Shown here: in pieces, positions 1-12,631 of the stretch
Layout of the letters: each line of letters begins with the position of its first letter
Numbering within the stretch: the stretch's first letter is position 1
Source: Spirochaetota bacterium
GTDB lineage: Bacteria; Spirochaetota; Brachyspiria; Brachyspirales; JACRPF01
Length of the DNA stretch: 64,000 nt
Assembly: GCA_016214035.1 (NCBI GenBank)
Contig: JACRPF010000004.1
Coordinates: forward strand, 144,322 to 208,321
Reading direction: 5' to 3'
The notes under the pieces: model-generated
The model's database searches: none
What the model was told of the DNA's origin: nothing
What the model saw: the letters and a program-made list of their open reading frames with translations, nothing else
Program-made: the position numbers and the translations under genes

Positions 1-1
1 C

Positions 2-2710
2 TTTGAAGACGTTCTCACCTGTAAAAACGGATCCATCCGCAACAGCAGCGTATCCGCCCGCATAATACACATCGGCGGTGAAGCGTGCATACTGTCCGTC
101 ACCCACGACATCACCGAACGCAAACAGATGGAAATTGCATTGCGTGAAAGCGAGCAGAAATTCCGGCAAGTCGTCGAATCCGCGCCATGGGGCATGCATT
201 TCTGCGAGCTTCGGGACGATAAAATTATCTTTGTGGGCGCAAATCCATTCGCCGAACGCATACTCGGCAGGGATCACCGTCCGTTCATCGGGAAATCTAT
301 CGACGAAGTTTTTCCGGTGATACGTGAACCTGATATCGCATCGATCTATAAGACCATCGCCCAGAAAGGCGGCATCTGGACAACCGAACAGGTAAACTAT
401 GACAACGGGAAGATAAAAAACGCATTCGAGGTCTTTGCGTTCCAGACGGCCCCGAACAAAATGGTTGCATCGTTCTCCGATATCTCCGACCGGATGAAAG
501 CACAGCAGGAACTGCAGGAGAAAACCGACGAACTCGACCGTTTCTTCAATTCAACACTCGATCTTCTCTGCATCGCCGATACTGACGGATTCTTCAGACG
601 GCTGAACCCGGCATGGGAGACAACGCTCGGATATATGATCGAAGAGCTTGAAGGTAAAAAGTTTCTCGATCTGGTGCATCCGGACGATATACCGGCAACG
701 CTGCAGACGATGCGGACACTTGACGGCCAGCATGAAGTCCTTAATTTCACGAATCGCTACCGGCATAAAAACGGTTCGTACCGGCATCTTGAGTGGCGCT
801 CATTTCCTTCCGGAAATCTCGTGTATGCCTCCGCACGCGATATCACCGACCGTATCACCATGGAGTCAGCACTCGGTGAAAGTGAAAAACGCTATCGCAC
901 CATCGTAGAAAACCTCAACGACGCCTATATACGGCACGACTTCAACGGCACCATCAACGGCTGTAATGAGATTGCATATCGTATACACGGTTATACTGAG
1001 GAGGAATTCATCGGCAGGCATCTGAGTGAAATTACCTCGCCGAAAAGCGCGCTGCTCGTCAAACAGCGGCTGCAGGAACTCGTTGAGCGCGGCAGTATAG
1101 AATTCGATGCCGAGCACATACGCAAGGACGGATCGGTCATTCCGGTTTCCGTCAGTGCGCGTGTGGTCACCGAATCGGGCGGCGGCGTTATACAAAGCTT
1201 TGTACGCGATATCACCGAACGTGTGGCAATGGAAGCCGCGCTGAAGGAAAGCGAGCAGCGATTCAGAAGCATTTTTGATGAAAGCCCCTACCCGATCACG
1301 CTGTCGAGACTTCCGGACGGCATCATCGTCGACGTTAATAAAGAGTTCACCAAAGCCACGGGGATGACGCCGGAAATGGCACGCGGAAGAATGGCCTCCG
1401 AACTCGGCATCATGCGTACTGAGGACGATGCCGCATTAACCGCATCGCTGATGGAATACGGCGTCATCGGACCTGTCGAACTGCCGGCGGGAACATCCTC
1501 CAATCCGCGTGTGGGGCTCATCATCGCCAAACGAATCGAGATTAACGGCGTGCAGTACAGTCTCGCGATGGTGCAGGACATCACCGACCGTAAACGGGCG
1601 GAGGAAGCGCTGCGCGCCAGTGAGGAAAAATACCGTTCACTCGTCGCGAATATGCCGGATATAGTTCTGGTGCATATCAACGGCAGAATTATCTATATCA
1701 ACGACACCGCGCGTGCGGTCACCGGATATTCAGCCGAAGAACTCCTCGGCACGAGCGTACTCGATTATGTCGATAAGGACGACGCCGCGCTGATGATGAA
1801 TATCGCCGGGAAACGTCTGGACGGAGAGCAGGTACCGGATGTGTACGAGCAGCGCTTCATCACCAAGAACGGCGGCATACGCGACCTCGAAGTACGTGTG
1901 GCGCTTATCAGTTATGAGGGCGAACGCGCCAACCTGGTGGTGCTCACCGACATCACCGAGCGTAAAAAAACCGAGGAACAGCTCCGTAGATACACGGCGG
2001 ACCTCGAGCGTTCAAATCGGGATCTTGAGGATTTCGCCTACATAGCATCGCACGACCTGCAGGAGCCGCTGCGCAAGGTGCAGGCGTTCGGCGACCGGCT
2101 GAAACAGAAATGCCTTCCGATACTCGGCGATGACGGAGCGAATTATATCGAGCATATGTCCTCGTCGACCAAACGCATGCAGCAGCTCATCAACGACCTC
2201 CTGGCGTATTCACGTGTCGGGGCAAACACACACCTGTTCGCGCCCATAAACCTCACCGAAACGGTTGAAGAAGCCATGTCGGCACTCGACGTGAAGCGCG
2301 CCGAAACAAAAGCGGTGATATCCTTCAATGCGCTTCCCGTCATAGACGCAGACCGCATGCAGATGACGCAGCTTTTCCAGAACCTGCTGTCCAACGCGCT
2401 GAAGTTCAGATCCGCGGACATCGCACCGGAAATTCGCATCACCGCGCGCGATATCGAAAATGACATGATCGAGATATCCGTTTCGGACAACGGCATCGGA
2501 TTCGATGAAAAGTATCTCAACAAGATCTTCACGATATTCCAGCGACTGCACCCGCGCGAAGCATATGAAGGCACCGGCGCGGGACTCGCAATCTGCAAAA
2601 AGATCGTCACGCATCACGGGGGGAGTATTACCGCGGCAAGCAGCCCCGGCAACGGCGCCACATTCATCATCAGACTTCCACGGCGTCACGAAGCGGGAAG
2701 CGAACGGTAG
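2..2710 (+). CDS. Multi-PAS sensor histidine kinase; 5' end lies outside the window
   Basis: ORF track gives 128..2710, but the same frame stays open back to nt 2. It reads ..VTHDITERKQMEIALRESEQKFR, the same PAS-end/linker junction (DIT[DE]R..E.AL.ESE..[FY]R) that recurs at four later positions. The C-terminus has the H-box FAYIASHDLQEPLRKV and HATPase_c motifs (DNGIGF, GTGAGLAICKKIV). Confidence 0.9.
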   Translation, partial: FEDVLTCKNGSIRNSSVSARIIHIGGEACILSVTHDITERKQMEIALRESEQKFRQVVESAPWGMHFCELRDDKIIFVGANPFAERILGRDHRPFIGKSIDEVFPVIREPDIASIYKTIAQKGGIWTTEQVNYDNGKIKNAFEVFAFQTAPNKMVASFSDISDRMKAQQELQEKTDELDRFFNSTLDLLCIADTDGFFRRLNPAWETTLGYMIEELEGKKFLDLVHPDDIPATLQTMRTLDGQHEVLNFTNRYRHKNGSYRHLEWRSFPSGNLVYASARDITDRITMESALGESEKRYRTIVENLNDAYIRHDFNGTINGCNEIAYRIHGYTEEEFIGRHLSEITSPKSALLVKQRLQELVERGSIEFDAEHIRKDGSVIPVSVSARVVTESGGGVIQSFVRDITERVAMEAALKESEQRFRSIFDESPYPITLSRLPDGIIVDVNKEFTKATGMTPEMARGRMASELGIMRTEDDAALTASLMEYGVIGPVELPAGTSSNPRVGLIIAKRIEINGVQYSLAMVQDITDRKRAEEALRASEEKYRSLVANMPDIVLVHINGRIIYINDTARAVTGYSAEELLGTSVLDYVDKDDAALMMNIAGKRLDGEQVPDVYEQRFITKNGGIRDLEVRVALISYEGERANLVVLTDITERKKTEEQLRRYTADLERSNRDLEDFAYIASHDLQEPLRKVQAFGDRLKQKCLPILGDDGANYIEHMSSSTKRMQQLINDLLAYSRVGANTHLFAPINLTETVEEAMSALDVKRAETKAVISFNALPVIDADRMQMTQLFQNLLSNALKFRSADIAPEIRITARDIENDMIEISVSDNGIGFDEKYLNKIFTIFQRLHPREAYEGTGAGLAICKKIVTHHGGSITAASSPGNGATFIIRLPRRHEAGSER

Positions 2711-2828
2711 ACTGCGGCGTGCGTGTTGCGAATATTTGAAAACGGTTTATACTGTGCGTACGACACTTGTCCAGCTACCGCAACGGCGCGTTTACTCGAT
2801 CGATACACGGCGCAGAAAAGGAGTTCTG

Positions 2829-3281
2829 ATGGAAAAACGCAAGCCCGTAAGCATTCTCATAGCCGAAGATGACAGCGAAGACCGCATCCTCATACAGGAA
2901 GCCTTCCATGAAAGCCGTCTTGCTAACGACATTAAATTCGTCGCGGACGGTGAAGAACTCCTCGATTATCTGCGCCACACCGGCAAATACCACGGCGACA
3001 AGAGCGCAACGCGTCCGGGCATCATACTCCTCGATCTCAACATGCCGAAAAAAGACGGCCGTGAAACGCTCAGAGACCTGAAAGCCGATCCGCTGCTTGC
3101 CACCATACCGGTTATCATTCTCACCACCTCGCAGGCTGAAGAGGATATCGTAAAAAGTTACAAGACGGGCGCGAGCGGATTCATTACCAAGCCGGTCACC
3201 TTCGACGGGCTAGTGAATGTCATGCGCATCATCGGAAAATACTGGTTCGAGATTGTCGAGCTGCCCGGCCCGCGCAGCTGA
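2829..3281 (+). CDS. Stand-alone response-regulator receiver protein (Rcp1/phytochrome-RR-like)
   Basis: Internal ATG of ORF 2505..3281. The product starts MEKRKPVSILIAEDDSEDRILI, has the phospho-acceptor context ILLDLNMPKKDG and the conserved K in FITKP. The longer start would overlap the kinase 3' end. Confidence 0.85.
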   Translation: MEKRKPVSILIAEDDSEDRILIQEAFHESRLANDIKFVADGEELLDYLRHTGKYHGDKSATRPGIILLDLNMPKKDGRETLRDLKADPLLATIPVIILTTSQAEEDIVKSYKTGASGFITKPVTFDGLVNVMRIIGKYWFEIVELPGPRS

Positions 3282-3303: not shown

Positions 3304-5253
3304 ATGTCGGGCGAAGATATTATCAGAGTACTTGTCGTCGATGACGATGAGGACGACTATATCATCATCCGTGAACTCTTACGCGAAGTGCACCATCGAA
3401 GTTATGAGACGGACTGGCTGCCGCACGGACGCGACATCGCCGGGGCGCTCGCGAAAAAAACATACGATATCTGTCTCATCGACTACAACCTCGGCGGCGA
3501 CAACGGCATAGCCATCATCCGCTCGGTCATGACCGCCGGCAGATCCATACCCTTCATACTCATCACGGGTCAGGACGACTATGAAGTGGACCTGAAAGCC
3601 ATGCAGGCGGGCGCACGCGACTACCTTTCAAAAAATACGCTCTCGCCCGATTCACTAGAACGGTCGATACGCTATGCGGTCAATGAGCACCGGCTGGAAC
3701 GCGAACGCATCAACGCGCTCCTTGAACTCGGCGAAAGCGAACGGGCGCTGGCCGCGGCTGCCCGCGACTGGCAGAACACGTTTGACGCCGTGGGCGACGC
3801 CATCTGGCTCCTCGACCGCGAACACCGCATTGTACGCGTGAACAAGGCGACCAGGGAGCTCTTCGGCGTAGAACAGAGCGCGATACTCGGGATGTACTGC
3901 TGGAAAGTGGTGCACAACACCGATACACCGCTCCCGAACTGCCCGGTAAACACGGCGATGAAGACGAAAAAACGCGCGTCGCTGGAAATCTCATCCGGAA
4001 ACCGGAAATTCCTCATCGTAGCCGATCCCATCCTTGAGAAAAACGGCGATTATCGCGGAGCCGTGCATATCGCGTCGGATATCACTGAACGTACACGCAT
4101 CGCATCGGCGCTGGCAGAAAGCGAGGAAAAGTTCAGAAGCATCATCGAGCAGTCCGCCGACGGCATCGCGCTCAGCGACAAGGACGGCATCATCATTGAA
4201 TGGAATCACGGCGAGGAACTTATCACCGGCATCCCGCGCGCGGAGGCGATGGGAAAGCCGGCATGGGATCTGCAATCAAGCCTCATCGTGGACACGACGC
4301 AACAAGAGGCCATCGCCGACAGGATGCGCGAACAGATATCACTGATGCTCAGGAATGAGAACACGCCGAACATGACACAGGAGACCGTTTTCCGGCGCCG
4401 CGACGGCGAGATCCGCACTATGCAGATCACCATGTTCGTCATCAACGCATCGCACGGACGCATGGTGGGAACGTTCACGCGAGACATCACCGAGCACAAG
4501 CGCGTCGAGGACGAGCGGCTGTTCCAGGAAAAGATCATGCAGCGCACCGAACGTCTCGCCTCGCTCGGACAGATATCGTCGGCAATCGGCCATGAGATCA
4601 ATCAGCCGCTGCAGTCGATTAAGGTCATCGCCGGAACGGCGGTGTATCTCCATGAACATGAACAGCGCACGCTCTCCACGGAAACGCTCATCGGCGATTT
4701 CAAAAAAATCATCGAGCGCGTCGATCGGCTTGACGGCATCATCAAGAGTATGCGCGTCATGCTGAAATCGTCTGACAAGATAGACGCGCGTCCGCTCGAC
4801 CTCAACAAGTGCATCCATTCGACGCTCGACATCTTCAAACAGAAGCTCATCTCGCACGGCGTTGCGCTCACCACGGTATTCTCCGACGGTCTCGGCAAGG
4901 TGCTCTTTCCCGAGGTGCAGCTCTCCCAGGTCATCGCCAATATCGTGGACAATGCGGTCGCCGCGCTCGACAACGCCGCGCATGAAGAACGGCGCATCGT
5001 GATCTCCACCGGCATGAAAAACGGCAGCATATACCTCTCCATCGCGGACAACGGCCCGGGCATACCCGACGAGCAGAAGGAACGCATCTTCAACCCGTTC
5101 TATTCGCTGCAGCAGAAAGAACACAGTATGGGACTCGGGCTCTATATCGTCACCACCATCCTGAAATCATTCGACGCCACCATCGCGGTATCGGACAACG
5201 ACATGGGCGGGGCGACGTTCACGGTGCGCTTTGCTCCGGAGCGTCCCGCATGA
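3304..5253 (+). CDS. Hybrid receiver-PAS-histidine kinase
   Basis: An ATG preceded by GGAGG lies inside ORF 3217..5253. N-terminal receiver (VLVVDDDEDD, LIDYNLGGDNG), two PAS-like segments ending DITERTR / DITEHKR, H-box SSAIGHEINQPLQSI, and an ATPase domain (DNGPGIP, GLGLYIV). Confidence 0.88.
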   Translation: MSGEDIIRVLVVDDDEDDYIIIRELLREVHHRSYETDWLPHGRDIAGALAKKTYDICLIDYNLGGDNGIAIIRSVMTAGRSIPFILITGQDDYEVDLKAMQAGARDYLSKNTLSPDSLERSIRYAVNEHRLERERINALLELGESERALAAAARDWQNTFDAVGDAIWLLDREHRIVRVNKATRELFGVEQSAILGMYCWKVVHNTDTPLPNCPVNTAMKTKKRASLEISSGNRKFLIVADPILEKNGDYRGAVHIASDITERTRIASALAESEEKFRSIIEQSADGIALSDKDGIIIEWNHGEELITGIPRAEAMGKPAWDLQSSLIVDTTQQEAIADRMREQISLMLRNENTPNMTQETVFRRRDGEIRTMQITMFVINASHGRMVGTFTRDITEHKRVEDERLFQEKIMQRTERLASLGQISSAIGHEINQPLQSIKVIAGTAVYLHEHEQRTLSTETLIGDFKKIIERVDRLDGIIKSMRVMLKSSDKIDARPLDLNKCIHSTLDIFKQKLISHGVALTTVFSDGLGKVLFPEVQLSQVIANIVDNAVAALDNAAHEERRIVISTGMKNGSIYLSIADNGPGIPDEQKERIFNPFYSLQQKEHSMGLGLYIVTTILKSFDATIAVSDNDMGGATFTVRFAPERPA

Positions 5254-6683
5254 CGGTCTTTGTCGTCGACGACGAAGCCGACTGCTGCGACGATCTGTCG
5301 TCATTCGTCCGCGCCATCGGCCACACGGTCACGGGATTCACCGACCCGCGCGCTGCGCTCGACGCCATCATCAAGGAGCCGCCGGACGTCATCATCACCG
5401 ACGTCAACATGCCGTATATCAACGGCATCGAACTCTTCAGCCGCATCCGTGAAAAAAACTGCCGCGCCGAGGTCATCTTCATCTCGGGCAAAGCGGAAAC
5501 CATTGAATCCATCAACGCCATGGAACGCGGCGTGTATGATTTTTTCATCAAACCGGTGGACGTCAGCAAGGTAGCGGAAGCGCTCTCCGGCATCGCCGGG
5601 CTTCGCGCTGCCGAAACGGGCAAGCTGCCGGCGCATACTCTTGCCGAGGCCGTGGCAAAACTGGAGCGCATCGCCGTCGATGAAGTGACCTTCTCCCCGG
5701 ACGATTTTCCCGGACCGCGCTACGGCGAGGACATCGGCATATTCTCAGAACGGATGAAGGCGGTATACCGCAAGCTCAAAAAGCTGCGCGAATATCCGAA
5801 CACCCCGGTGCTCATCGAGGGCGAAACGGGCACCGGCAAGGAAATCATCGCGCAGTTCCTGCATTACGGCGGATCGCTTTCCGACGAACGCCCGTTCATC
5901 GCCATCAACTGCCCCACCATCGGCAAGGACATCTTCGAATCGGAACTGTTCGGCTACGAGGGCGGCGCGTTCACCGGGGCGGACCCGAAAGGCCGCGCGG
6001 GAAAGATAAAGGCCGCCGAGGACGGCACGCTCTTTCTCGACGAGGTGACTGAACTTGATACCGGTTCGCAGGCGAAACTCCTGCGCGTGCTGCAGGAGAA
6101 TGAATACTACCGCGTGGGCGGCACAACGAAAATTCACACCAACGCACGCATCGTCTGCGCGACCAATCTGGCGATGGAGAATCTGGTCGCACGGGGACTG
6201 TTCAGAAGCGACCTCTATTACCGGCTCAACGTCTGCAAAATATCGCTCCCGCCGCTCCGCGACCGCCGCGAGGAGATAGCGCCGCTCGCGGTGCTGTTCG
6301 TGAAGGAATGCAATCGTAAATTCGGAAAAACGATAACGCATATTGAATCGGCAGCGCTCACGCGTCTTGCCGCGCTTCCGTGGACGGGAAATATCCGCGA
6401 ATTGAAAAACGTGATAACCAACAGCATGCTGTTCAAGGAAGGCGCCACACTTACAGCGGCTGATTTTCCCGTACTCCTGGGAGAAACACCAGCACCCATC
6501 GCGCCTTCGATGCGGTTTCCCGATACGCCATTCGATCTGCAGCTCTATGTCAAAAAAGCGGCTGATGATATGAGCGTGTCTATCATTGAAGAAATTCTTA
6601 AAAAATTCAATGGCAACAAGACCAAAGCCGCTGAATTCCTGAAACTTTCACGCATGCAGTTCTACCGGCTTTATAAAAAATAA
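5250..6683 (+). CDS. Sigma-54-dependent response regulator (NtrC-family bacterial enhancer-binding protein)
   Basis: ATGA overlap with the upstream kinase. Receiver (VVDDEAD, IITDVNMP), AAA+ Walker A GETGTGKE, the signature GAFTGA, Walker B LFLDEV, and a C-terminal Fis-type HTH KTKAAEFLKLSRMQFYRLYKK. Confidence 0.92.
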   Translation: MTVFVVDDEADCCDDLSSFVRAIGHTVTGFTDPRAALDAIIKEPPDVIITDVNMPYINGIELFSRIREKNCRAEVIFISGKAETIESINAMERGVYDFFIKPVDVSKVAEALSGIAGLRAAETGKLPAHTLAEAVAKLERIAVDEVTFSPDDFPGPRYGEDIGIFSERMKAVYRKLKKLREYPNTPVLIEGETGTGKEIIAQFLHYGGSLSDERPFIAINCPTIGKDIFESELFGYEGGAFTGADPKGRAGKIKAAEDGTLFLDEVTELDTGSQAKLLRVLQENEYYRVGGTTKIHTNARIVCATNLAMENLVARGLFRSDLYYRLNVCKISLPPLRDRREEIAPLAVLFVKECNRKFGKTITHIESAALTRLAALPWTGNIRELKNVITNSMLFKEGATLTAADFPVLLGETPAPIAPSMRFPDTPFDLQLYVKKAADDMSVSIIEEILKKFNGNKTKAAEFLKLSRMQFYRLYKK

Positions 6684-6687
6684 CTTC

Positions 6688-6757
6688 CGCAACAATTCCG
6701 TTACACTTTCACGCAACATTTCTGTTACGTCGTATCATTTCCGTAACAGAAAGTGCG
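6688..6757 (+). promoter_or_regulatory. Candidate upstream activator sequence: three copies of a 15-17 nt motif
   Basis: CGCAACAATTCCGTTAC (6688..6704) and CGCAACATTTCTGTTAC (6712..6728) are direct copies. GTAACAGAAAGTGCG (6743..6757) is inverted. Copies 2 and 3 form TTTCTGTTACG-N12-CGTAACAGAAA. The array lies about 85-155 nt upstream of the -24/-12 element and directly after the bEBP gene. Confidence 0.6.
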
Positions 6758-6841
6758 TGTCCTTTAAAGACAATAAACTGTTAACCGGCCGTTTCAATGC
6801 AAAAATAGACGTTTCTACTGTCCGCACCGAAACGTTATAAT

Positions 6842-6857
6842 TGGCACGTCGATTGCA
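6842..6857 (+). promoter_or_regulatory. Sigma-54 (-24/-12) promoter
   Basis: TGGCAC-GTCGA-TTGCA is an exact match to the TGGCAC-N5-TTGCW consensus. It is the only such match I found in the window. The predicted TSS is near 6868. Confidence 0.75.
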
Positions 6858-6916
6858 ATATACTACCTATGAACGCAGCACTTCAAACACCAACATCGGT
6901 CAAAGGAACCCAAGCT

Positions 6917-7279
6917 ATGCTGAAAATCCTGCTTGTGGACGACAACAAATACGTCATTGAGGACATCGGCGGCGCGCTTGAATCGATGGGACATTACTGC
7001 ATCGGAGAAGTAAATCCGCTGCACGGACTCGAGCTCTACAAGAAAGGTGATTTTGACGTCGTCATCGTCGACGTGAAAATGCCGGGAATGAACGGCATCG
7101 AGTTTCTCAAGGAAGTGCAGCAGTTCAATCCGAACGCAGCGGTGATAATACTCACCTCATACGGCGACAGCGAGACATACAAAGAAGCCATGAACAACCG
7201 CGCGTATGCGTTCTTCAGCAAACCGTCAATGGACATCAGGGAATTGATGGAATGCCTTGCGAAGATCGAGCACGCATAA
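6917..7279 (+). CDS. CheY-like single-domain response regulator
   Basis: Internal ATG of ORF 6869..7279 giving MLKILLVDDNKY.., with acceptor VIVDVKMPGMNG and the conserved K in FFSKP. The 6869 ATG would sit at the predicted sigma-54 TSS, so I prefer 6917. Confidence 0.8.
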   Translation: MLKILLVDDNKYVIEDIGGALESMGHYCIGEVNPLHGLELYKKGDFDVVIVDVKMPGMNGIEFLKEVQQFNPNAAVIILTSYGDSETYKEAMNNRAYAFFSKPSMDIRELMECLAKIEHA

Positions 7280-7296
7280 CGGAAGGAGGATCTCTC

Positions 7297-7506
7297 ATGC
7301 ACAAAAAGCACTGTGAGCGCTGCGGCAAGCAGGAATTCCCGCTGTTCGTAGTGGCAAACTACACGAGAAAATACAAACTCGTTTGCGGGACCTGTCTCCT
7401 GCATGTAACCGCGCTGGCATCCGTACAGGAACGGAAGACCACACACGGACAGATCATGTTCGACTCATACTTAGAGGCCGGGTATCATGGAAATAAAAGT
7501 GTGTGA
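7297..7506 (+). CDS. Small zinc-ribbon-like protein (69 aa), CxxC-x20-CxxC
   Basis: ATG 6 nt after GGAAGGAGGA, inside ORF 7252..7506. Product MHKKHCERCGKQEF..KLVCGTCLLHV. It is a paralog of the next ORF. Confidence 0.65.
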   Translation: MHKKHCERCGKQEFPLFVVANYTRKYKLVCGTCLLHVTALASVQERKTTHGQIMFDSYLEAGYHGNKSV

Positions 7507-7654
7507 AAAATGCAAGAACATGACCTTGAAGCTGTATCATGTCGATGACTATTCCGAACAGTACTCCATGGTCTGCGGCACATGTTTTCTTGATATTTTA
7601 CGCACCGTGGTGACCAAGAACGAAGAACGGTTGCCGCAGGGAGGGTTACAATGA
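7487..7654 (+). CDS. Small zinc-ribbon-like protein (55 aa), paralog of 7297..7506; not in the ORF track (<60 aa)
   Basis: Manual translation: MEIKVCEKCKNMTLKLYHVDDYSEQYSMVCGTCFLDILRTVVTKNEERLPQGGLQ*. It has the same CE[RK]C..Y..[KQ]Y.[LM]VCGTC[LF]L pattern. A GAGG lies upstream, and the stop overlaps the next start as ATGA. Confidence 0.6.
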   Translation: MEIKVCEKCKNMTLKLYHVDDYSEQYSMVCGTCFLDILRTVVTKNEERLPQGGLQ

Positions 7655-7866
7655 CCTGCAGCAAGCTTGCACATTGCCCCTTTTTCAACGACGAATTCGA
7701 CCGCATGCCGCTTCGCTCCGGTATCCTCAAACGCGTCTATTGCATGACGGCGCCGGATGCATGCGCCCGCTATCAATTAAAGGCACATCACGAGGATGCG
7801 CCGCATGATCTCCTCCCCGACGGGACGAAACTGGCCGCGGGTGAACGCAAAGAGGCGATTGCATGA
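7651..7866 (+). CDS. Small Cys4 protein (71 aa), C-x5-CPFFN ... YC-x6-CARY type
   Basis: ORF track. GGAGGG lies 6 nt upstream and the start is coupled to the previous ORF by ATGA. Cysteines are at residues 3, 9, 31 and 38. Confidence 0.65.
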   Translation: MTCSKLAHCPFFNDEFDRMPLRSGILKRVYCMTAPDACARYQLKAHHEDAPHDLLPDGTKLAAGERKEAIA

Positions 7867-7899
7867 TCTTTCAAACTGCCGTCCGACTCCCTTGATACA

Positions 7900-7944
7900 C
7901 CGGTGAACCGCCGGGTAACACCGACGGTTCACCGGATATTTTTT
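7900..7944 (+). terminator. Rho-independent terminator of the sigma-54 operon
   Basis: CCGGTGAACCG (7900..7910) pairs perfectly with CGGTTCACCGG (7925..7935). A 14-nt loop separates them and ATATTTTTT follows. Confidence 0.8.
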
Positions 7945-8199
7945 CGACTGAAACACGTGATCTTTGCAGCAATACCGGGCGCCCGCGGGATCTGAATATC
8001 CGCTGGGACACTCCTGCCTCACCTACTGTGCTTACGGGGACTTCAAGGCCGCTTGTCGGCTTTCTCCGGGCGCCCGTCTTTTTTTTTCAGCTGCCTGCGG
8101 CTGTCATGTTACAGCCCGCTTTCCCTTGCTTTTTCACCATACTGCATATACAATGGCCGTCGTTGCGACGCATAGAAATGACGCCGCTAAGGAAAAACA

Positions 8200-8916
8200 A
8201 TGGCCACCGAATCGCCCGAATCACCCGTAACCACATCCACCACGAACAAATGGACCAGCGAGCGTGTCCGTCAGGAAATAATCGCATTCATCGGTAAATA
8301 TCAGAAGATAATGCTCACCAGTCTGATAGCGGTGGTAGCCGCAGGCGTACTCGCCGCGGGATGGGCGATATATCAGAACAACCGCGTACTCATGATGAAC
8401 ACCACCTTCGAAAAAGGCTTTAATCTTTACCTTAGAAGCCAGCGCACACAGGATGCCTTCTCGGCGAATCAGTATGTAAACGAAGCAATCAGCACGCTTG
8501 AAACGGTGGAAAAAAAAGTGCGCGGCACGGCACTCGGCAACCGCGCGTCGTATATACTCGCCAACTGCTACTATCAGACCAAGAAAAGCGATGAAGCGAT
8601 CAAACGTCTGAAGAAAGTGAGCGAACAGCGCGGTTTTTATCTCGCACCGCAGGCGATGTACGACCTCATCATGATCACCGTGGAAGCGGGCAATTATGAT
8701 GACGCATTGATGTATGCCCAGAAGTTCAAGAAAATGTACGCAAAATCGTATCTTGCCGGAGAGGTGGTCATCACCGCTTCCACCGTATACCGCAAGCTCA
8801 ACGACCGCGAGAAGGCGGTAAACGTATTGAAAGAGTTCCTCAAGGCAAATCCGGAAAGCTCCTACAAAAAAAAGATGGCCGAGCGCGTTGCGCTTCTGGA
8901 AGCCAAGGTATTGTAA
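8200..8916 (+). CDS. Membrane-anchored TPR-like protein (YfgM/UPF0070-like)
   Basis: ORF track. One N-terminal TM (LTSLIAVVAAGVLAAGWAIY) followed by helical TPR-like repeats. Confidence 0.6.
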   Translation: MATESPESPVTTSTTNKWTSERVRQEIIAFIGKYQKIMLTSLIAVVAAGVLAAGWAIYQNNRVLMMNTTFEKGFNLYLRSQRTQDAFSANQYVNEAISTLETVEKKVRGTALGNRASYILANCYYQTKKSDEAIKRLKKVSEQRGFYLAPQAMYDLIMITVEAGNYDDALMYAQKFKKMYAKSYLAGEVVITASTVYRKLNDREKAVNVLKEFLKANPESSYKKKMAERVALLEAKVL

Positions 8917-10181
8917 TGCTCACCGCCGTTCAAGCAGATTCGCTCAGCCGTTCGATCGTATCGTTCGACGAAGCGGTTCTCCGGACGGTGGAAGGCATCG
9001 TAGCCGACGTCAAAGCTAACGGCGAAAGCGCGGTTGCCGCGTATGTAAAAAAGCATGACGGTGTCACCGCATCCAGCATCAACCTCACCATCGAACGCGC
9101 CGAAATCGAACGCGTCACCGAATTCCCCGATGGCAAAGTTTTAAAAGCGCTTCTCACCGCCAAAAGCAATATCGAACGGTTCCACCAGATGCAGCGTCAG
9201 CATTCGTTCTATACAGCGAACGCCGACGGCATGCTCGGACAGTCGGTGATACCGCTCGACCGCATCGCGGCATATGTCCCCGGCGGCAGGGCGTTACTTT
9301 TGAGTTCGCTCCTCATGGCCGTCATACCCGCCGTTGTTGCCGGCGTGCCGGATATCTCCATCATAACACCGCCGCAGCAGGACGGATCGATACGCGAGGA
9401 GATAATCTATCTCGCGAATATACTCGGCGTCAAACGCATCATCAAGGCGGGCGGCGCGCACGGCATTGCGTATGCGGCATTCGGCGGCGCACACCTGACA
9501 CCCGTGGACAAGATCGTCGGGCCCGGCAACGCGTATGTTACGCTCGCCAAAAAGACGATATACGGATATTGCGCCATAGACATGCTCGCGGGACCGTCCG
9601 AGATAATGATAATCGCCGACGACACGGCACAGCCTGCGGTGCTCGCGCGTGACCTTCTCGGTCAGGCGGAACACGACGAACGCGCGTCATCCATTCTTAT
9701 CAGCACCTCGCAGAAGCTCATCGATGCCGTCAACAAAGAGCTTGCCGTCATGGTACCCGCATCCCCGCGCCGGAGCATCATCGAAGTGTCGCTCGCGCAG
9801 AACGGAAAATCTGTCCTCGCCGCAAGTATCGCCGAAGCATTCAAAATTGCAAACAGGTTCGGACCGGAACACCTTGAAGTCATCGCGGCGATACCCGACA
9901 CGGAAGTTATCGCGAATGTACGCAACGCCGGTGCGCTTTTCATCGGCGGACACAGCCCCGAAGCGCTCGGGGATTATCTCATCGGCTCCAATCATGTGCT
10001 GCCTACCTACGGCGCAAGCCGTTTCGCCTCGGCACTCGGCGTCTACGACTTCTACCGCCGCGTAAACGTCATCGCCGCCAACCGCGACTATCTCGCGAAG
10101 GTCCGGGACGCCGTCAAGACGCTTGCGGAATACGAGGGCTTGTATGAGCATGGGGCTTCGGTGACCGAACGGTTCAAATAA
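8916..10181 (+). CDS. hisD: Histidinol dehydrogenase
   Basis: Motifs GPGNAYVTLAKK, AGPSEIMIIAD, QAEHDE and a HisD-like length. TAATG overlap with the upstream gene. Confidence 0.92.
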   Translation: MLTAVQADSLSRSIVSFDEAVLRTVEGIVADVKANGESAVAAYVKKHDGVTASSINLTIERAEIERVTEFPDGKVLKALLTAKSNIERFHQMQRQHSFYTANADGMLGQSVIPLDRIAAYVPGGRALLLSSLLMAVIPAVVAGVPDISIITPPQQDGSIREEIIYLANILGVKRIIKAGGAHGIAYAAFGGAHLTPVDKIVGPGNAYVTLAKKTIYGYCAIDMLAGPSEIMIIADDTAQPAVLARDLLGQAEHDERASSILISTSQKLIDAVNKELAVMVPASPRRSIIEVSLAQNGKSVLAASIAEAFKIANRFGPEHLEVIAAIPDTEVIANVRNAGALFIGGHSPEALGDYLIGSNHVLPTYGASRFASALGVYDFYRRVNVIAANRDYLAKVRDAVKTLAEYEGLYEHGASVTERFK

Positions 10182-10260
10182 CGTACCGTCGCTGCACATG
10201 CCGGTTGCGGGTTTCCCCCCTCCATGATATACTTCGTGCACCGTAATTTAAGGAGTTTTT

Positions 10261-11598
10261 GTGTCAATTACCATACGTCACGATAATGCAAAACGTTTTA
10301 TCGGCGAGCATGAACTCGCCTGTCTTACACCCGCGGCCATTGCGGCAAACAACATGCTCGCGAAAGGAACCGGCGCGGGGAACGATTTTCTCGGCTGGGT
10401 GAACCTTCCCACGCAGGCGAAAAAGGATGCAGCCGCGGTAAAAAAAGTGGCGCATGAGATACGCGACAACGCGGAAGTGCTTGTGGTCGCGGGCATCGGG
10501 GGATCGTACCTGGGCGCCCGGGCTGTCGTTGAATCGTTCGCCGATTCATTCGCGCTCGCGGGAGCAAAAAAAGGATCGCCCGCGATAGTATATGCGGGAA
10601 ACAATCTCTCGGGCCGTTACCACAATGAACTCATGCGCTATCTGGACGGCAAAGAGTTTTATGTGAACGTCATCTCGAAAAGCGGCACCACCACGGAACC
10701 GGCCATAGCATTCCGCCTCCTCAAGGAATACACCGAAAAACGGTACGGCGAAAAAGCATCCGAACGCATTATCGCCACAACCGACCGGGCCAAGGGCGCG
10801 CTCCGTACGCTTGCTACCGAAAAGAAATACAGAACATTCGTCATACCAGACGATGTGGGCGGACGGTACTCGGTGCTCACGCCGGTGGGACTCATCCCCA
10901 TCGCGGCGGCAGGCATCGATATCGACGGCATCATCGACGGCGCAATAGCGCAGGAGAAAGAGACCGCGTCTGACAGCATCGAGAAAAATACGGCGCTCCG
11001 TTATGCGGTGCTGCGCAATGCGCTTTATGCGAAGGGTTTTGCGACAGAAATAATGGTGAACTACATACCGCGGCTGCACTTCATTGCTGAATGGTGGAAG
11101 CAGCTCTACGGCGAGAGCGAAGGCAAGGATCAGAAGGGCATCTTCCCCGCGGCGGTCGATTTTACGACCGATCTTCACTCGCTCGGCCAGTATATCCAGG
11201 ACGGACGGCGGACATTGTTCGAAACGGTGCTCCGCGTCAAGAGCGACGGCAGCGACATCACCATGCAGAAAGCGGGCGACGACGCCGACGGCCTCAACTA
11301 TCTGGCCGGAAAGGGCATGCACGAGATCAACGACACGGCTCTCATGGCAACCGTGCTAGCGCATACCGACGGCGGCGTACCGAACCTTGCGCTCGAACTC
11401 GATGCGGTAAGCCCGTACACCATCGGCGAACTCCTCTATTGCTTCGAAAAGGCGTGTGGCATCAGCGGTTATATGCTCGGCGTAAACCCGTTCGATCAGC
11501 CGGGCGTTGAGGCGTATAAAAAGAACATGTTCGCACTGCTCGGGAAAAAGGGCTATGAAAAAGAACGTGAAGCGCTCATGGCCCGCGTGACACGTTGA
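10261..11598 (+). CDS. pgi: Glucose-6-phosphate isomerase (about 445-aa type)
   Basis: GTG start 5 nt after AAGGAG. Motifs GIGGSYLGARAV, SKSGTTTEP and DDVGGRYSVLTPVGL. Confidence 0.92.
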   Translation: MSITIRHDNAKRFIGEHELACLTPAAIAANNMLAKGTGAGNDFLGWVNLPTQAKKDAAAVKKVAHEIRDNAEVLVVAGIGGSYLGARAVVESFADSFALAGAKKGSPAIVYAGNNLSGRYHNELMRYLDGKEFYVNVISKSGTTTEPAIAFRLLKEYTEKRYGEKASERIIATTDRAKGALRTLATEKKYRTFVIPDDVGGRYSVLTPVGLIPIAAAGIDIDGIIDGAIAQEKETASDSIEKNTALRYAVLRNALYAKGFATEIMVNYIPRLHFIAEWWKQLYGESEGKDQKGIFPAAVDFTTDLHSLGQYIQDGRRTLFETVLRVKSDGSDITMQKAGDDADGLNYLAGKGMHEINDTALMATVLAHTDGGVPNLALELDAVSPYTIGELLYCFEKACGISGYMLGVNPFDQPGVEAYKKNMFALLGKKGYEKEREALMARVTR

Positions 11599-11650
11599 CG
11601 AATCCGAACAGATTACTACATTATTATGAAAACTTCTGGAGTCAATTCCC

Positions 11651-12631
11651 ATGGAATTAGATATAGTACGTGTCCGTTTCCATTACCATATCGGCAGGTT
11701 TAGATACAACATCACCGAACCGTTCGCTATCGGTGACACCTGCATCGTAAATACCGAAGAAGGACAGGACTACGGTACGGTGGTGAGCTTCACGAAAGTG
11801 GAGGACGCCCCGCCCGAAGCACTCGTCTTTTTCGATGAGCAGGGCACCGTGCAGGGCGACGGCAAAGGCAACGATATTCATGACGATGTCGACGAGGACT
11901 CTCGCGATCATCGTCACGCGCCGGCGAACCGTAAACAGCAGACGCGCGCGAAGAACGATCCGCACAAGATATATGAAGTGGTCCGCAAAGCGAACGCCGA
12001 AGATCTCAAACGCAACAAAGAAAACGAGGAGCTTGAGAAGCAGGCGTTCAAGGAATGCCGTGAGCGCATCGAGCATCATAAGCTCGACATGAAACTCATC
12101 AGTGCGCATTACTATTTCGACCGGTCAAAGCTCCTGTTCGAGTTCATCGCCGAACACCGCGTGGACTTCCGCGACCTGGTCAAGGACCTCGCGGGACATT
12201 TCCGCACGCGCATCGACCTCAGGCAGATAGGGGTGCGCGATGAGGCAAAAATCATCGGCGGCTGCGGCGTCTGCGGACGCGACCTCTGCTGCAACCGCAT
12301 GAAGGGCGACTTCGAGGCGATATCGATCAAGATGGCCCGCGAACAGAATCTGTCGCTGAACACGGCGAAGATTTCGGGTCTCTGCGGACGGCTCATGTGC
12401 TGTCTCTCGTACGAATACCACACCTACTGCGAAATCAAGAAAGGACTTCCCCGCCAGGGTGACCGCATCATCTTCAATGAAACCCCCGCTGAGATACGCG
12501 ACGTCAATCCGCTCAGCCGCAAAGTCCTCATCCAAACCGAGGATAAACGCATGCTGTACATCAAAGTTGACGACATTAAAAAAACGTCGGACGGACGGTC
12601 GGTCGTCACCATGGAAGTGACAAAAGAATAG
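11651..12631 (+). CDS. PSP1 domain protein (RicT/YaaT-like)
   Basis: Cys-rich PSP1 C-terminal signature GGCGVCGRDLCCNRMKGDFEAISIKMAREQNLSLNTAKISGLCGRLMCCLSYEY. Confidence 0.85.
   Translation: MELDIVRVRFHYHIGRFRYNITEPFAIGDTCIVNTEEGQDYGTVVSFTKVEDAPPEALVFFDEQGTVQGDGKGNDIHDDVDEDSRDHRHAPANRKQQTRAKNDPHKIYEVVRKANAEDLKRNKENEELEKQAFKECRERIEHHKLDMKLISAHYYFDRSKLLFEFIAEHRVDFRDLVKDLAGHFRTRIDLRQIGVRDEAKIIGGCGVCGRDLCCNRMKGDFEAISIKMAREQNLSLNTAKISGLCGRLMCCLSYEYHTYCEIKKGLPRQGDRIIFNETPAEIRDVNPLSRKVLIQTEDKRMLYIKVDDIKKTSDGRSVVTMEVTKE

Follow-up and report, generated by a model that had tools for sequence, protein, structure and literature searches.

The 64,000 nucleotides (nt) analysed here (the window) are positions 144,322 to 208,321 of contig JACRPF010000004.1, from the Spirochaetota bacterium assembly GCA_016214035.1, and derive from a groundwater metagenome (run X1). 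Near the start of the window, a predicted sigma-54 promoter precedes four short genes, which encode a stand-alone receiver and three mini-proteins with four Cys each, named after their open reading frames (ORFs) ORF3, ORF4 and ORF5. This unit is probably the sigma-54-dependent output operon of a multi-step two-component cascade encoded directly upstream. The features are as follows, in window coordinates:

1..2710, + strand: sensor histidine kinase (kinase 1) with at least four PAS domains, HisKA and HATPase_c (Pfam); reading frame open from the window edge
2817..3281, + strand: stand-alone receiver within the kinase cascade, 154 residues; Pfam Response_reg (E 1.9e-20) and no other domain
3304..5253, + strand: hybrid kinase with an N-terminal receiver, two PAS domains, an NtrB-like H-box (GHEINQPL) and HATPase_c (Pfam and ORF list)
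5250..6683, + strand: NtrC-family bacterial enhancer-binding protein (the activator), 477 residues; receiver, AAA+, AAA lid and Fis-type helix-turn-helix (HTH)
6688..6705, + strand: candidate enhancer repeat 1, CGCAAC-AATTCC-GTTACA, with an internal imperfect dyad
6712..6729, + strand: candidate enhancer repeat 2, CGCAAC-ATTTCT-GTTACG, the best copy and the left arm of an 11-nt inverted repeat
6742..6757, - strand: candidate enhancer repeat 3, inverted (CGTAACAGAAAGTGCG), 2 nt shorter, the right arm of the inverted repeat
6842..6857, + strand: predicted sigma-54 promoter TGGCAC-GTCGA-TTGCA (TGGCACGTCGATTGCA), the sole exact match to TGGCAC-N5-TTGCW in the window
6917..7279, + strand: single-domain response regulator (the operon receiver), 120 residues; Pfam Response_reg PF00072 only (E 8.1e-23)
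7297..7506, + strand: ORF3, 69 residues, C6-x2-C9-x20-C30-x2-C33, a zinc-ribbon-like orphan
7487..7654, + strand: ORF4, 55 residues, four Cys spaced as in ORF3, a paralogue of ORF3
7651..7866, + strand: ORF5, 71 residues, C3-x5-C9-x21-C31-x6-C38, a member of a family with the pattern CPFF...CAR...P.DL.P
7900..7945, + strand: intrinsic terminator, a 14-pair hairpin (7900-7936) followed by a T-run (ATATTTTTT), from fold calculation

The promoter faces the operon, 85 nt past repeat 3 and 60 nt ahead of the ATG at 6917, and transcription is predicted to start near 6867-6868. For the receiver gene, the most likely start is the ATG at 6917, preceded by AAGGAA at 8 nt; the ATG at 6869 is disfavoured because it has no Shine-Dalgarno sequence and lies on the predicted transcription start. 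Shine-Dalgarno sequences (AAGGAA, AAGGAGG, GAGG or GGGAGGG) were located 7-9 nt before the ATGs of the four operon ORFs. The receiver gene and ORF3 are separated by 17 nt, ORF3 and ORF4 overlap by 20 nt and ORF4 and ORF5 by 4 nt (ATGA), which is the pattern expected of translationally coupled genes. At the 3' end, the 71-nt terminator stretch has a calculated folding energy of -28.8 kcal/mol (z = -4.65), unmatched by any of 200 shuffled versions. A second hairpin at 8025-8095 was not significant (z = -0.43), and no RNA family was found by an Rfam scan of the whole window. A previous sequence-only reading of this DNA had proposed an exact TGGCAC-N5-TTGCA about 85 nt past a set of repeats, four packed or overlapping ORFs, all preceded by a Shine-Dalgarno sequence, and a strong terminator closing the unit; all were confirmed. 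Its description of the module as self-contained and of the operon as its only output was overstated for a view of 64 kb out of a contig of at least 368 kb; the activator may have other targets.

Four genes of the same strand lie ahead of the promoter and encode, in order, a multi-PAS kinase, a lone receiver, a receiver-PAS-kinase hybrid and an NtrC-type activator. Kinase 1 was matched in Pfam by PAS_9 (E 1.4e-47), HisKA (E 6.6e-10) and HATPase_c (E 1.3e-27). No stop interrupts its frame between base 2 and the ATG at 128, where the translation ...THDITERKQ-MEIAL is typical of the end of a PAS domain. Since the frame stays open to the edge, kinase 1 is probably longer than the visible part and truncated by the window, its gene starting upstream. 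The lone receiver (2817..3281) occupies the position of a phospho-sink or shuttle. The hybrid kinase was matched by Response_reg (E 1.1e-17), PAS_4 (E 8.1e-25) and HATPase_c (E 2.5e-20), and its start at ATG 3304 was favoured over 3217 because 3304 comes after the stop of the preceding gene. The PAS-kinase cascade that the sequence-only reading had placed upstream of the operon was borne out as a multi-step one, the last kinase gene and the activator gene sharing 4 nt (ATGA) between stop and start.

The activator contains Response_reg (PF00072, E 1.3e-22), Sigma54_activat (PF00158, E 1.3e-57), AAA_lid_14 and, at residues 445-473, HTH_8 (PF02954, E 5.9e-8). A Walker A motif (GETGTGKE, residue 191) and a GAFTGA motif (residue 239) were read from the sequence, in which the receiver also keeps D7, D8, D51 (TDVNMP) and K101 (FIKP). 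The receiver, AAA+ (GAFTGA) and Fis-HTH architecture first read at 5250..6683 is therefore borne out by the Pfam domains and the motif positions. Orthology to a named regulator (NtrC, AtoC, ZraR or others) was rejected because all NCBIfam equivalogs scored far below their cut-offs; AtoC was the best with 317 bits against a cut-off of 714, and NtrC reached 315 against 559. The closest relatives of the activator (44% identity) are found in low-GC Spirochaetota metagenome-assembled genomes, where the downstream genes differ. At the locus of the nearest one (L001, 7337..9908, 44%), a receiver-kinase hybrid gene lies directly 3' of the activator gene and its product has a similar H-box (VHEIRQPL). 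As the L001 activator gene directly precedes that of a hybrid kinase, the pairing of the two may be older than the operon cargo.

The repeats between the activator gene and the promoter are present as first described, two direct and one inverted just past the activator stop, and above chance. The first begins 5 nt past the stop, and the three are clustered 85-155 nt upstream of the promoter. As direct repeats, two copies span 6688-6704 and 6712-6728, and a weaker copy spans 6731-6747. The inverted repeat formed by copies 2 and 3 is perfect over 11 nt (TTTCTGTTACG / CGTAACAGAAA, 6719-6729 / 6742-6752), with a spacer of 12 nt. The 9-mer TTCYGTTAC was found three times in 64 kb, each time within 6696-6751 (expected 0.65), and the 18-mer of the repeat, with up to three mismatches allowed, is confined in the window to this intergenic region (expected 0.07). 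The repeats are in turn imperfect dyads of the form CGYAAC-N6-GTTRCG. Taken alone, the internal dyad pattern shows no enrichment over chance in the window (15 found, 12.5 expected); one such match, with two mismatches (CGCAACGGCGCGTTTACT), lies at 2779..2796 in the gap between the genes of kinase 1 and the lone receiver, at this chance level and without a -24/-12 element. The centre of the main dyad is 108 nt upstream of the GG of the -24 element. An enhancer-promoter distance of about 108 nt is typical for NtrC-like activators (PMC11841059). On sequence grounds, the repeats are probable binding sites (enhancers) of the adjacent activator.

The operon receiver has a full phospho-acceptor pocket (D8, D9, D52, T80 and K102). 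It had been called CheY-like, which holds for its single-domain architecture and not for a chemotaxis role: the CheY models scored far below their cut-offs (CheY_Halo 56.8 bits against 200) and no che genes are adjacent, and chemotaxis CheY was rejected. Compared with the three other receivers of the locus, it is closest to that of the activator, at an identity (31%) that is not decisive. In the source metagenome, a second copy of the receiver gene was found on a contig of 3,475 nt. It aligns without gaps and exactly from 6917 to 7279 at 82% nucleotide identity, with a similar depth (18.8 versus 21.2). Its 30-nt leader is identical to that of the window at 19 of 30 positions, Shine-Dalgarno sequence included, and a different ORF (MGIIIVV...) follows in place of ORF3. 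This copy comes either from the same genome, as a paralogue, or from a relative.

ORF3 and ORF4 align throughout the length that they share, at 36-38% identity (BLASTP E 3e-11), and both have their four Cys at positions 6, 9, 30 and 33. Coding potential was scored from codon usage, as log-odds derived from 22 long window ORFs. For ORF3 (0.32), ORF4 (0.18) and ORF5 (0.37), the annotated frame outscored the other five; known genes gave 0.62 +/- 0.18 in their own frame against -0.91 +/- 0.32 in the others, where none of their windows exceeded 0.1. A word-indexed search of 5.8 billion protein clusters with the ORF3/ORF4 alignment returned only these two proteins. No homologue was found by hidden Markov model (HMM) and tblastn searches over all 66 fetched loci, nor by tblastn of ORF3 against plasmids. 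ORF3 and ORF4 are therefore taken as lineage-specific. Curated libraries gave sub-threshold matches only, to various small zinc-finger families of the DUF kind (DUF7685, DUF7573, Elf1), and PDB sequence searches nothing significant. The pair is best regarded as tandemly duplicated micro-proteins of a zinc-ribbon-like type, specific to the lineage.

For comparison between strains, low-coverage contigs 92-97% identical to the locus (window 6973..7976) were obtained from a wastewater metagenome of a different study (run X5). The groundwater site is therefore not the only place where the organism, or a close relative of it, occurs. These contigs span the receiver/ORF3 junction and the junction between the end of ORF4 and ORF5; ORF4 itself lies outside their coverage. 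Each of the 13 differences listed for ORF5 falls on a third codon position and is synonymous; in the receiver gene five of the six differences are synonymous, and in ORF3 three of the five, the other two being conservative (H2Q and L28V).

The Cys pattern of ORF5 (3, 9, 31 and 38) is unlike the CxxC...CxxC of ORF3 and ORF4. A word-indexed search found only ORF5 itself, and an exhaustive phmmer search was needed to reveal its family. Among 1.84 billion cluster representatives (50% identity), 83 were matched (E 7e-12 to 1e-3), nearly all of 65-90 residues. The family thus comprises at least 83 clusters at this identity and spans bacteria and archaea; the named hosts include Thermodesulfobacteriota, Phosphitispora, a Thermoplasmata archaeon and Acidiferrum. 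A profile search gave 112 clusters at 90% identity, all labelled "hypothetical". The consensus of a 49-member alignment is M..C..L..CPFFND....MP......K..YC......CARY.V....VP.DLFP. Its invariant columns are C3, C9, C31, C38, P51 and P56, its near-invariant ones F11, P20, K27, A39, R40 and L54, and its Cys spacing is C-x5-C-x21/22-C-x6-C. ORF5 has all of these residues and a typical length. With 83 bits on the family HMM, against 92-106 for 10 of the 11 others scored, it is a divergent member. None of the 49 members matched any Pfam or NCBIfam model, and the family profile found no match among PDB sequences. The AlphaFold2 model of ORF5, built with the family alignment, consists of two short helices and long ordered loops, with a predicted local distance difference test (pLDDT) score of 86 and a predicted template modelling (pTM) score of 0.72; Foldseek searches of PDB and BFVD with this model gave nothing significant. 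No paper was found in a literature search for the CPFFND motif. An ORF5-type domain is fused to a GAF domain in one protein of 259 residues (P0034), and three proteins of 151-180 residues (P0004, P0009 and P0025) carry two ORF5-type domains in tandem. These fusions and duplications fit a signalling or dimeric module, and hint that the domain may be linked to signalling and may function as a pair.

Eleven ORF5-family members on long contigs were placed in their genomic context. Their neighbourhoods are unrelated and they are mostly lone genes. Upstream of the seven family genes that were scanned, no sigma-54-like promoter was detected, and several had sigma-70-like boxes. A general link of the family to sigma-54 or to signalling was dropped on these two counts. 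The neighbourhoods elsewhere therefore give no clue to the function of the family. As judged from the members examined, the placement of ORF5 behind a sigma-54 promoter, beside a receiver and zinc ribbons, appears peculiar to this locus. At one locus (L030, 5001..5225 and 6638..10225), the family gene lies 1.4 kb from the gene of a GAF/sigma-54 activator of NifA-like architecture, which is itself beside nifH and a P-II gene. This is the sole one of the 11 contexts with a nearby sigma-54 activator, and the small gene has no sigma-54 promoter upstream. At another (L032, 5001..7047), a HisKA/HATPase kinase gene lies 50 nt past the family gene on the same strand, and the two may be co-transcribed.

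Four lines of evidence (codon usage, paralogy, strain comparison and membership of the ORF5 family) indicate that the small operon ORFs are real genes. The three Cys4 mini-proteins of the sequence-only reading do have four Cys each, but they are not of one kind: ORF3 and ORF4 are an orphan zinc-ribbon-like pair and ORF5 comes from a widespread uncurated family. That the cargo has no assigned function was borne out by searches of Pfam, NCBIfam, PHROGs and PADLOC, in which ORF3-5 gave nothing significant, and of PDB.

The activator gene, the probable enhancer repeats, the -24/-12 promoter, the four-gene operon and the terminator form a coherent unit that is well supported by its anatomy, and the following mechanism is proposed for it. 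Kinase 1 would control the hybrid kinase through the N-terminal receiver of the latter. The hybrid kinase, with its NtrB-like H-box and a gene that overlaps that of the activator, would phosphorylate D51 of the activator. Each imperfect dyad CGYAAC-N6-GTTRCG would suit one Fis-HTH dimer, and dimers on the three repeats would assemble the ATPase ring. With ATP and its GAFTGA loops, the ring would remodel the closed sigma-54 RNA polymerase complex at 6842..6857, giving a transcript of about 1.07 kb that would start near 6868 and end at 7945. The weakest step of the scheme is the role of the cargo. The induced receiver might take phosphoryl groups from the same kinases, either to serve as a sink that is itself inducible, in negative feedback, or to form a branch point. 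The three four-Cys mini-proteins would be metal-binding (Zn or Fe) regulatory or adaptor proteins carrying the response, ORF5 as a recruited copy of a widespread stand-alone family and ORF3 and ORF4 as a lineage-specific duplicated zinc-ribbon pair.

The unit was compared with known systems. NtrBC-glnAp2, ZraSR and AtoSC share with it the receiver/AAA+ (GAFTGA)/Fis-HTH architecture, an adjacent and overlapping kinase gene, and dyad-like repeats, here candidate enhancers, about 100-150 bp upstream of a TGGCAC-N5-TTGCA promoter. They differ in their cargo, which consists of metabolic or transport genes and not of a receiver and mini-proteins. With CheY1-type sinks, MrrA and DivK, the 120-residue operon receiver shares a receiver-only architecture and a complete phospho-acceptor pocket; unlike them, it is the first product of the sigma-54 operon of its own pathway and would be inducible. 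Small zinc-finger micro-proteins of the C(P)XCG type occur, for example, in Haloferax. ORF3 and ORF4 resemble these in length (55-69 residues) and in two CxxC knuckles about 20 residues apart, but show no significant similarity to them, come from a bacterial host and form a tandem pair under putative sigma-54 control. Within its own unnamed four-Cys family, ORF5 is the sole member, among those examined, in an operon behind a sigma-54 promoter.

The closest parallel in gene content is the Nmp cascade of Myxococcus xanthus, which comprises the kinase NmpU, the receiver-only protein NmpT, a proposed phospho-sink, the receiver-kinase hybrid NmpS and the NtrC-like NmpR (PMC11841059). Phosphorylation of the NmpS receiver switches NmpS off, and the sites bound by NmpR are paired dyads close to sigma-54 promoters (PMC11841059). 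In both cases a kinase, a receiver-only protein, a hybrid kinase with an N-terminal receiver and an NtrC-like regulator are encoded together, and the first three genes here follow the M. xanthus order nmpU-nmpT-nmpS. Paired dyads lie near a sigma-54 promoter in both; binding is reported for NmpR, whereas the present sites are candidates from sequence. The differences are several. The first kinase here has multiple PAS domains only and is not a protoglobin (heme) oxygen sensor, the middle protein has one receiver where NmpT has two, and the hybrid kinase has two extra PAS domains. The repeats read CGYAAC-N6-GTTRCG against GCGCA-N5-TGCGC for the Nmp operator, and the known NmpR targets are oxygen-use genes, in contrast to the mini-proteins found here. 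The resemblance to Nmp would thus be one of functional analogy only, a precedent for the cascade logic and for a receiver sink.

Several results weigh against an output operon of this kind. No RNA run holding the locus was found, only DNA metagenomes. No orthologous locus was recovered by a search of GTDB genomes and JGI metagenomes with the activator, and there is therefore no phylogenetic footprint for the repeats or the promoter. The gene rpoN was not among the 10 large window ORFs scanned; a GAFTGA activator implies sigma-54. To these are added the chance-level frequency of the internal dyad, the unrelated and mostly solitary settings of the ORF5 relatives and the lack of sigma-54-like promoters upstream of the seven scanned. 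ORF4 has the weakest coding score of the three small ORFs, well under that of known genes, and the AlphaFold model of ORF3 was poor (pLDDT 58), with no significant hit in a fold search. Taken with the anatomy of the locus, these points leave the reading as a sigma-54-dependent cascade output the one that we consider likely, with reservations.

A serious rival accepts the promoter and the operon and reads the cargo as redox or metal-stress effectors. The pair ORF3/ORF4 would then consist of rubredoxin-like Fe(Cys)4 proteins, with ORF5 as an Fe-S or Zn protein; the PAS kinases would sense oxygen or redox state and switch them on, and the receiver would be a mere feedback element. The CxxC-x20-CxxC pattern, with CxxCG in ORF3, is compatible with rubredoxin-type knuckles, PAS domains are many in the kinases, the analogous Nmp cascade is oxygen-sensing and governs oxygen-use genes, and the named hosts of the ORF5 family listed above are mostly anaerobes. 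However, no rubredoxin or Fe-S family was found for ORF3-5 in Pfam (E limit 0.1) or NCBIfam (E limit 1), fold searches gave no significant match, and no redox enzymes are encoded within or next to the operon. This role of the cargo is doubtful on present evidence, though it has to be taken seriously.

The repeats at 6688..6757 might not be sites of the adjacent activator. Another enhancer-binding protein would then drive the promoter, or the repeats would serve another regulator or be a relic of duplication, and the adjacent activator would act elsewhere. The unenriched internal dyad and the unrelated genes downstream of the nearest activator relatives are in keeping with this, as is the number of activators that such genomes usually hold; D. 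vulgaris has 37 (PMC4641369). Yet the repeats start 5 nt past the activator stop and at a canonical distance from the sole sigma-54 promoter in 64 kb, and activators commonly control an adjacent operon: NmpR, for example, binds the promoter of a putative operon that holds its own gene (PMC11841059). Such a disconnection of activator and repeats is rather improbable. That ORF3 and/or ORF4 are not translated, the operon then being the receiver and ORF5 separated by structured or spacer RNA, is very unlikely: it would agree with the absence of homologues in protein clusters and fetched loci, coding scores under the gene average, the poor ORF3 model and the two non-synonymous strain differences out of five, but non-coding DNA would not keep such mutual identity together with four Cys in conserved spacing, the annotated frame outscores the other five where off-frame windows of real genes stay at or below 0.1, and both ORFs have Shine-Dalgarno sequences and overlapping, translationally coupled junctions.

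Under the preferred reading, a sigma-54-dependent output operon, the regulatory kind is a known one; the logic of phosphorelay, NtrC-type activator and sigma-54 promoter is standard and therefore teaches little alone. The value of the locus is as an entry point, since it places three unannotated mini-proteins under one cleanly defined and easily engineered switch. A notable by-product is that ORF5 flags a widespread family of four-Cys mini-proteins, absent from Pfam, NCBIfam and PDB, with a well-predicted structure. The family occurs in bacteria and archaea without a Pfam or NCBIfam model or a solved structure, and an inducing pathway and co-expressed partners such as those predicted here can make a family of this sort testable. 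The locus further illustrates how the transcriptional output of a pathway may be a signalling protein in its own right, here an inducible receiver, which is relevant to feedback design in two-component networks. A bolder proposal, unlikely as it stands, is that ORF5-type proteins are a new and widespread class of four-Cys metalloproteins of about 70 residues, with a fold not represented in PDB, and that ORF5, the zinc-ribbon pair and the receiver form here a dedicated protein-level output stage of the phosphorelay. Either by binding the phosphorylated receiver or by sensing the redox or metal state, the mini-proteins would relay the signal. If this were true, the operon would be the first handle on the function of the whole ORF5 family.

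A role in anti-phage defence was considered and rejected. On the 3' side of the operon, window 8200..12631 contains the gene of a TPR protein (Pfam) followed by housekeeping genes, which we take, from their translations only, to be hisD-like, pgi-like and PSP1-like. Other parts of the window encode enolase, alpha-amylase, UbiD and MatE. With housekeeping genes around it, the module is therefore embedded in the core chromosome and not in a mobile element.

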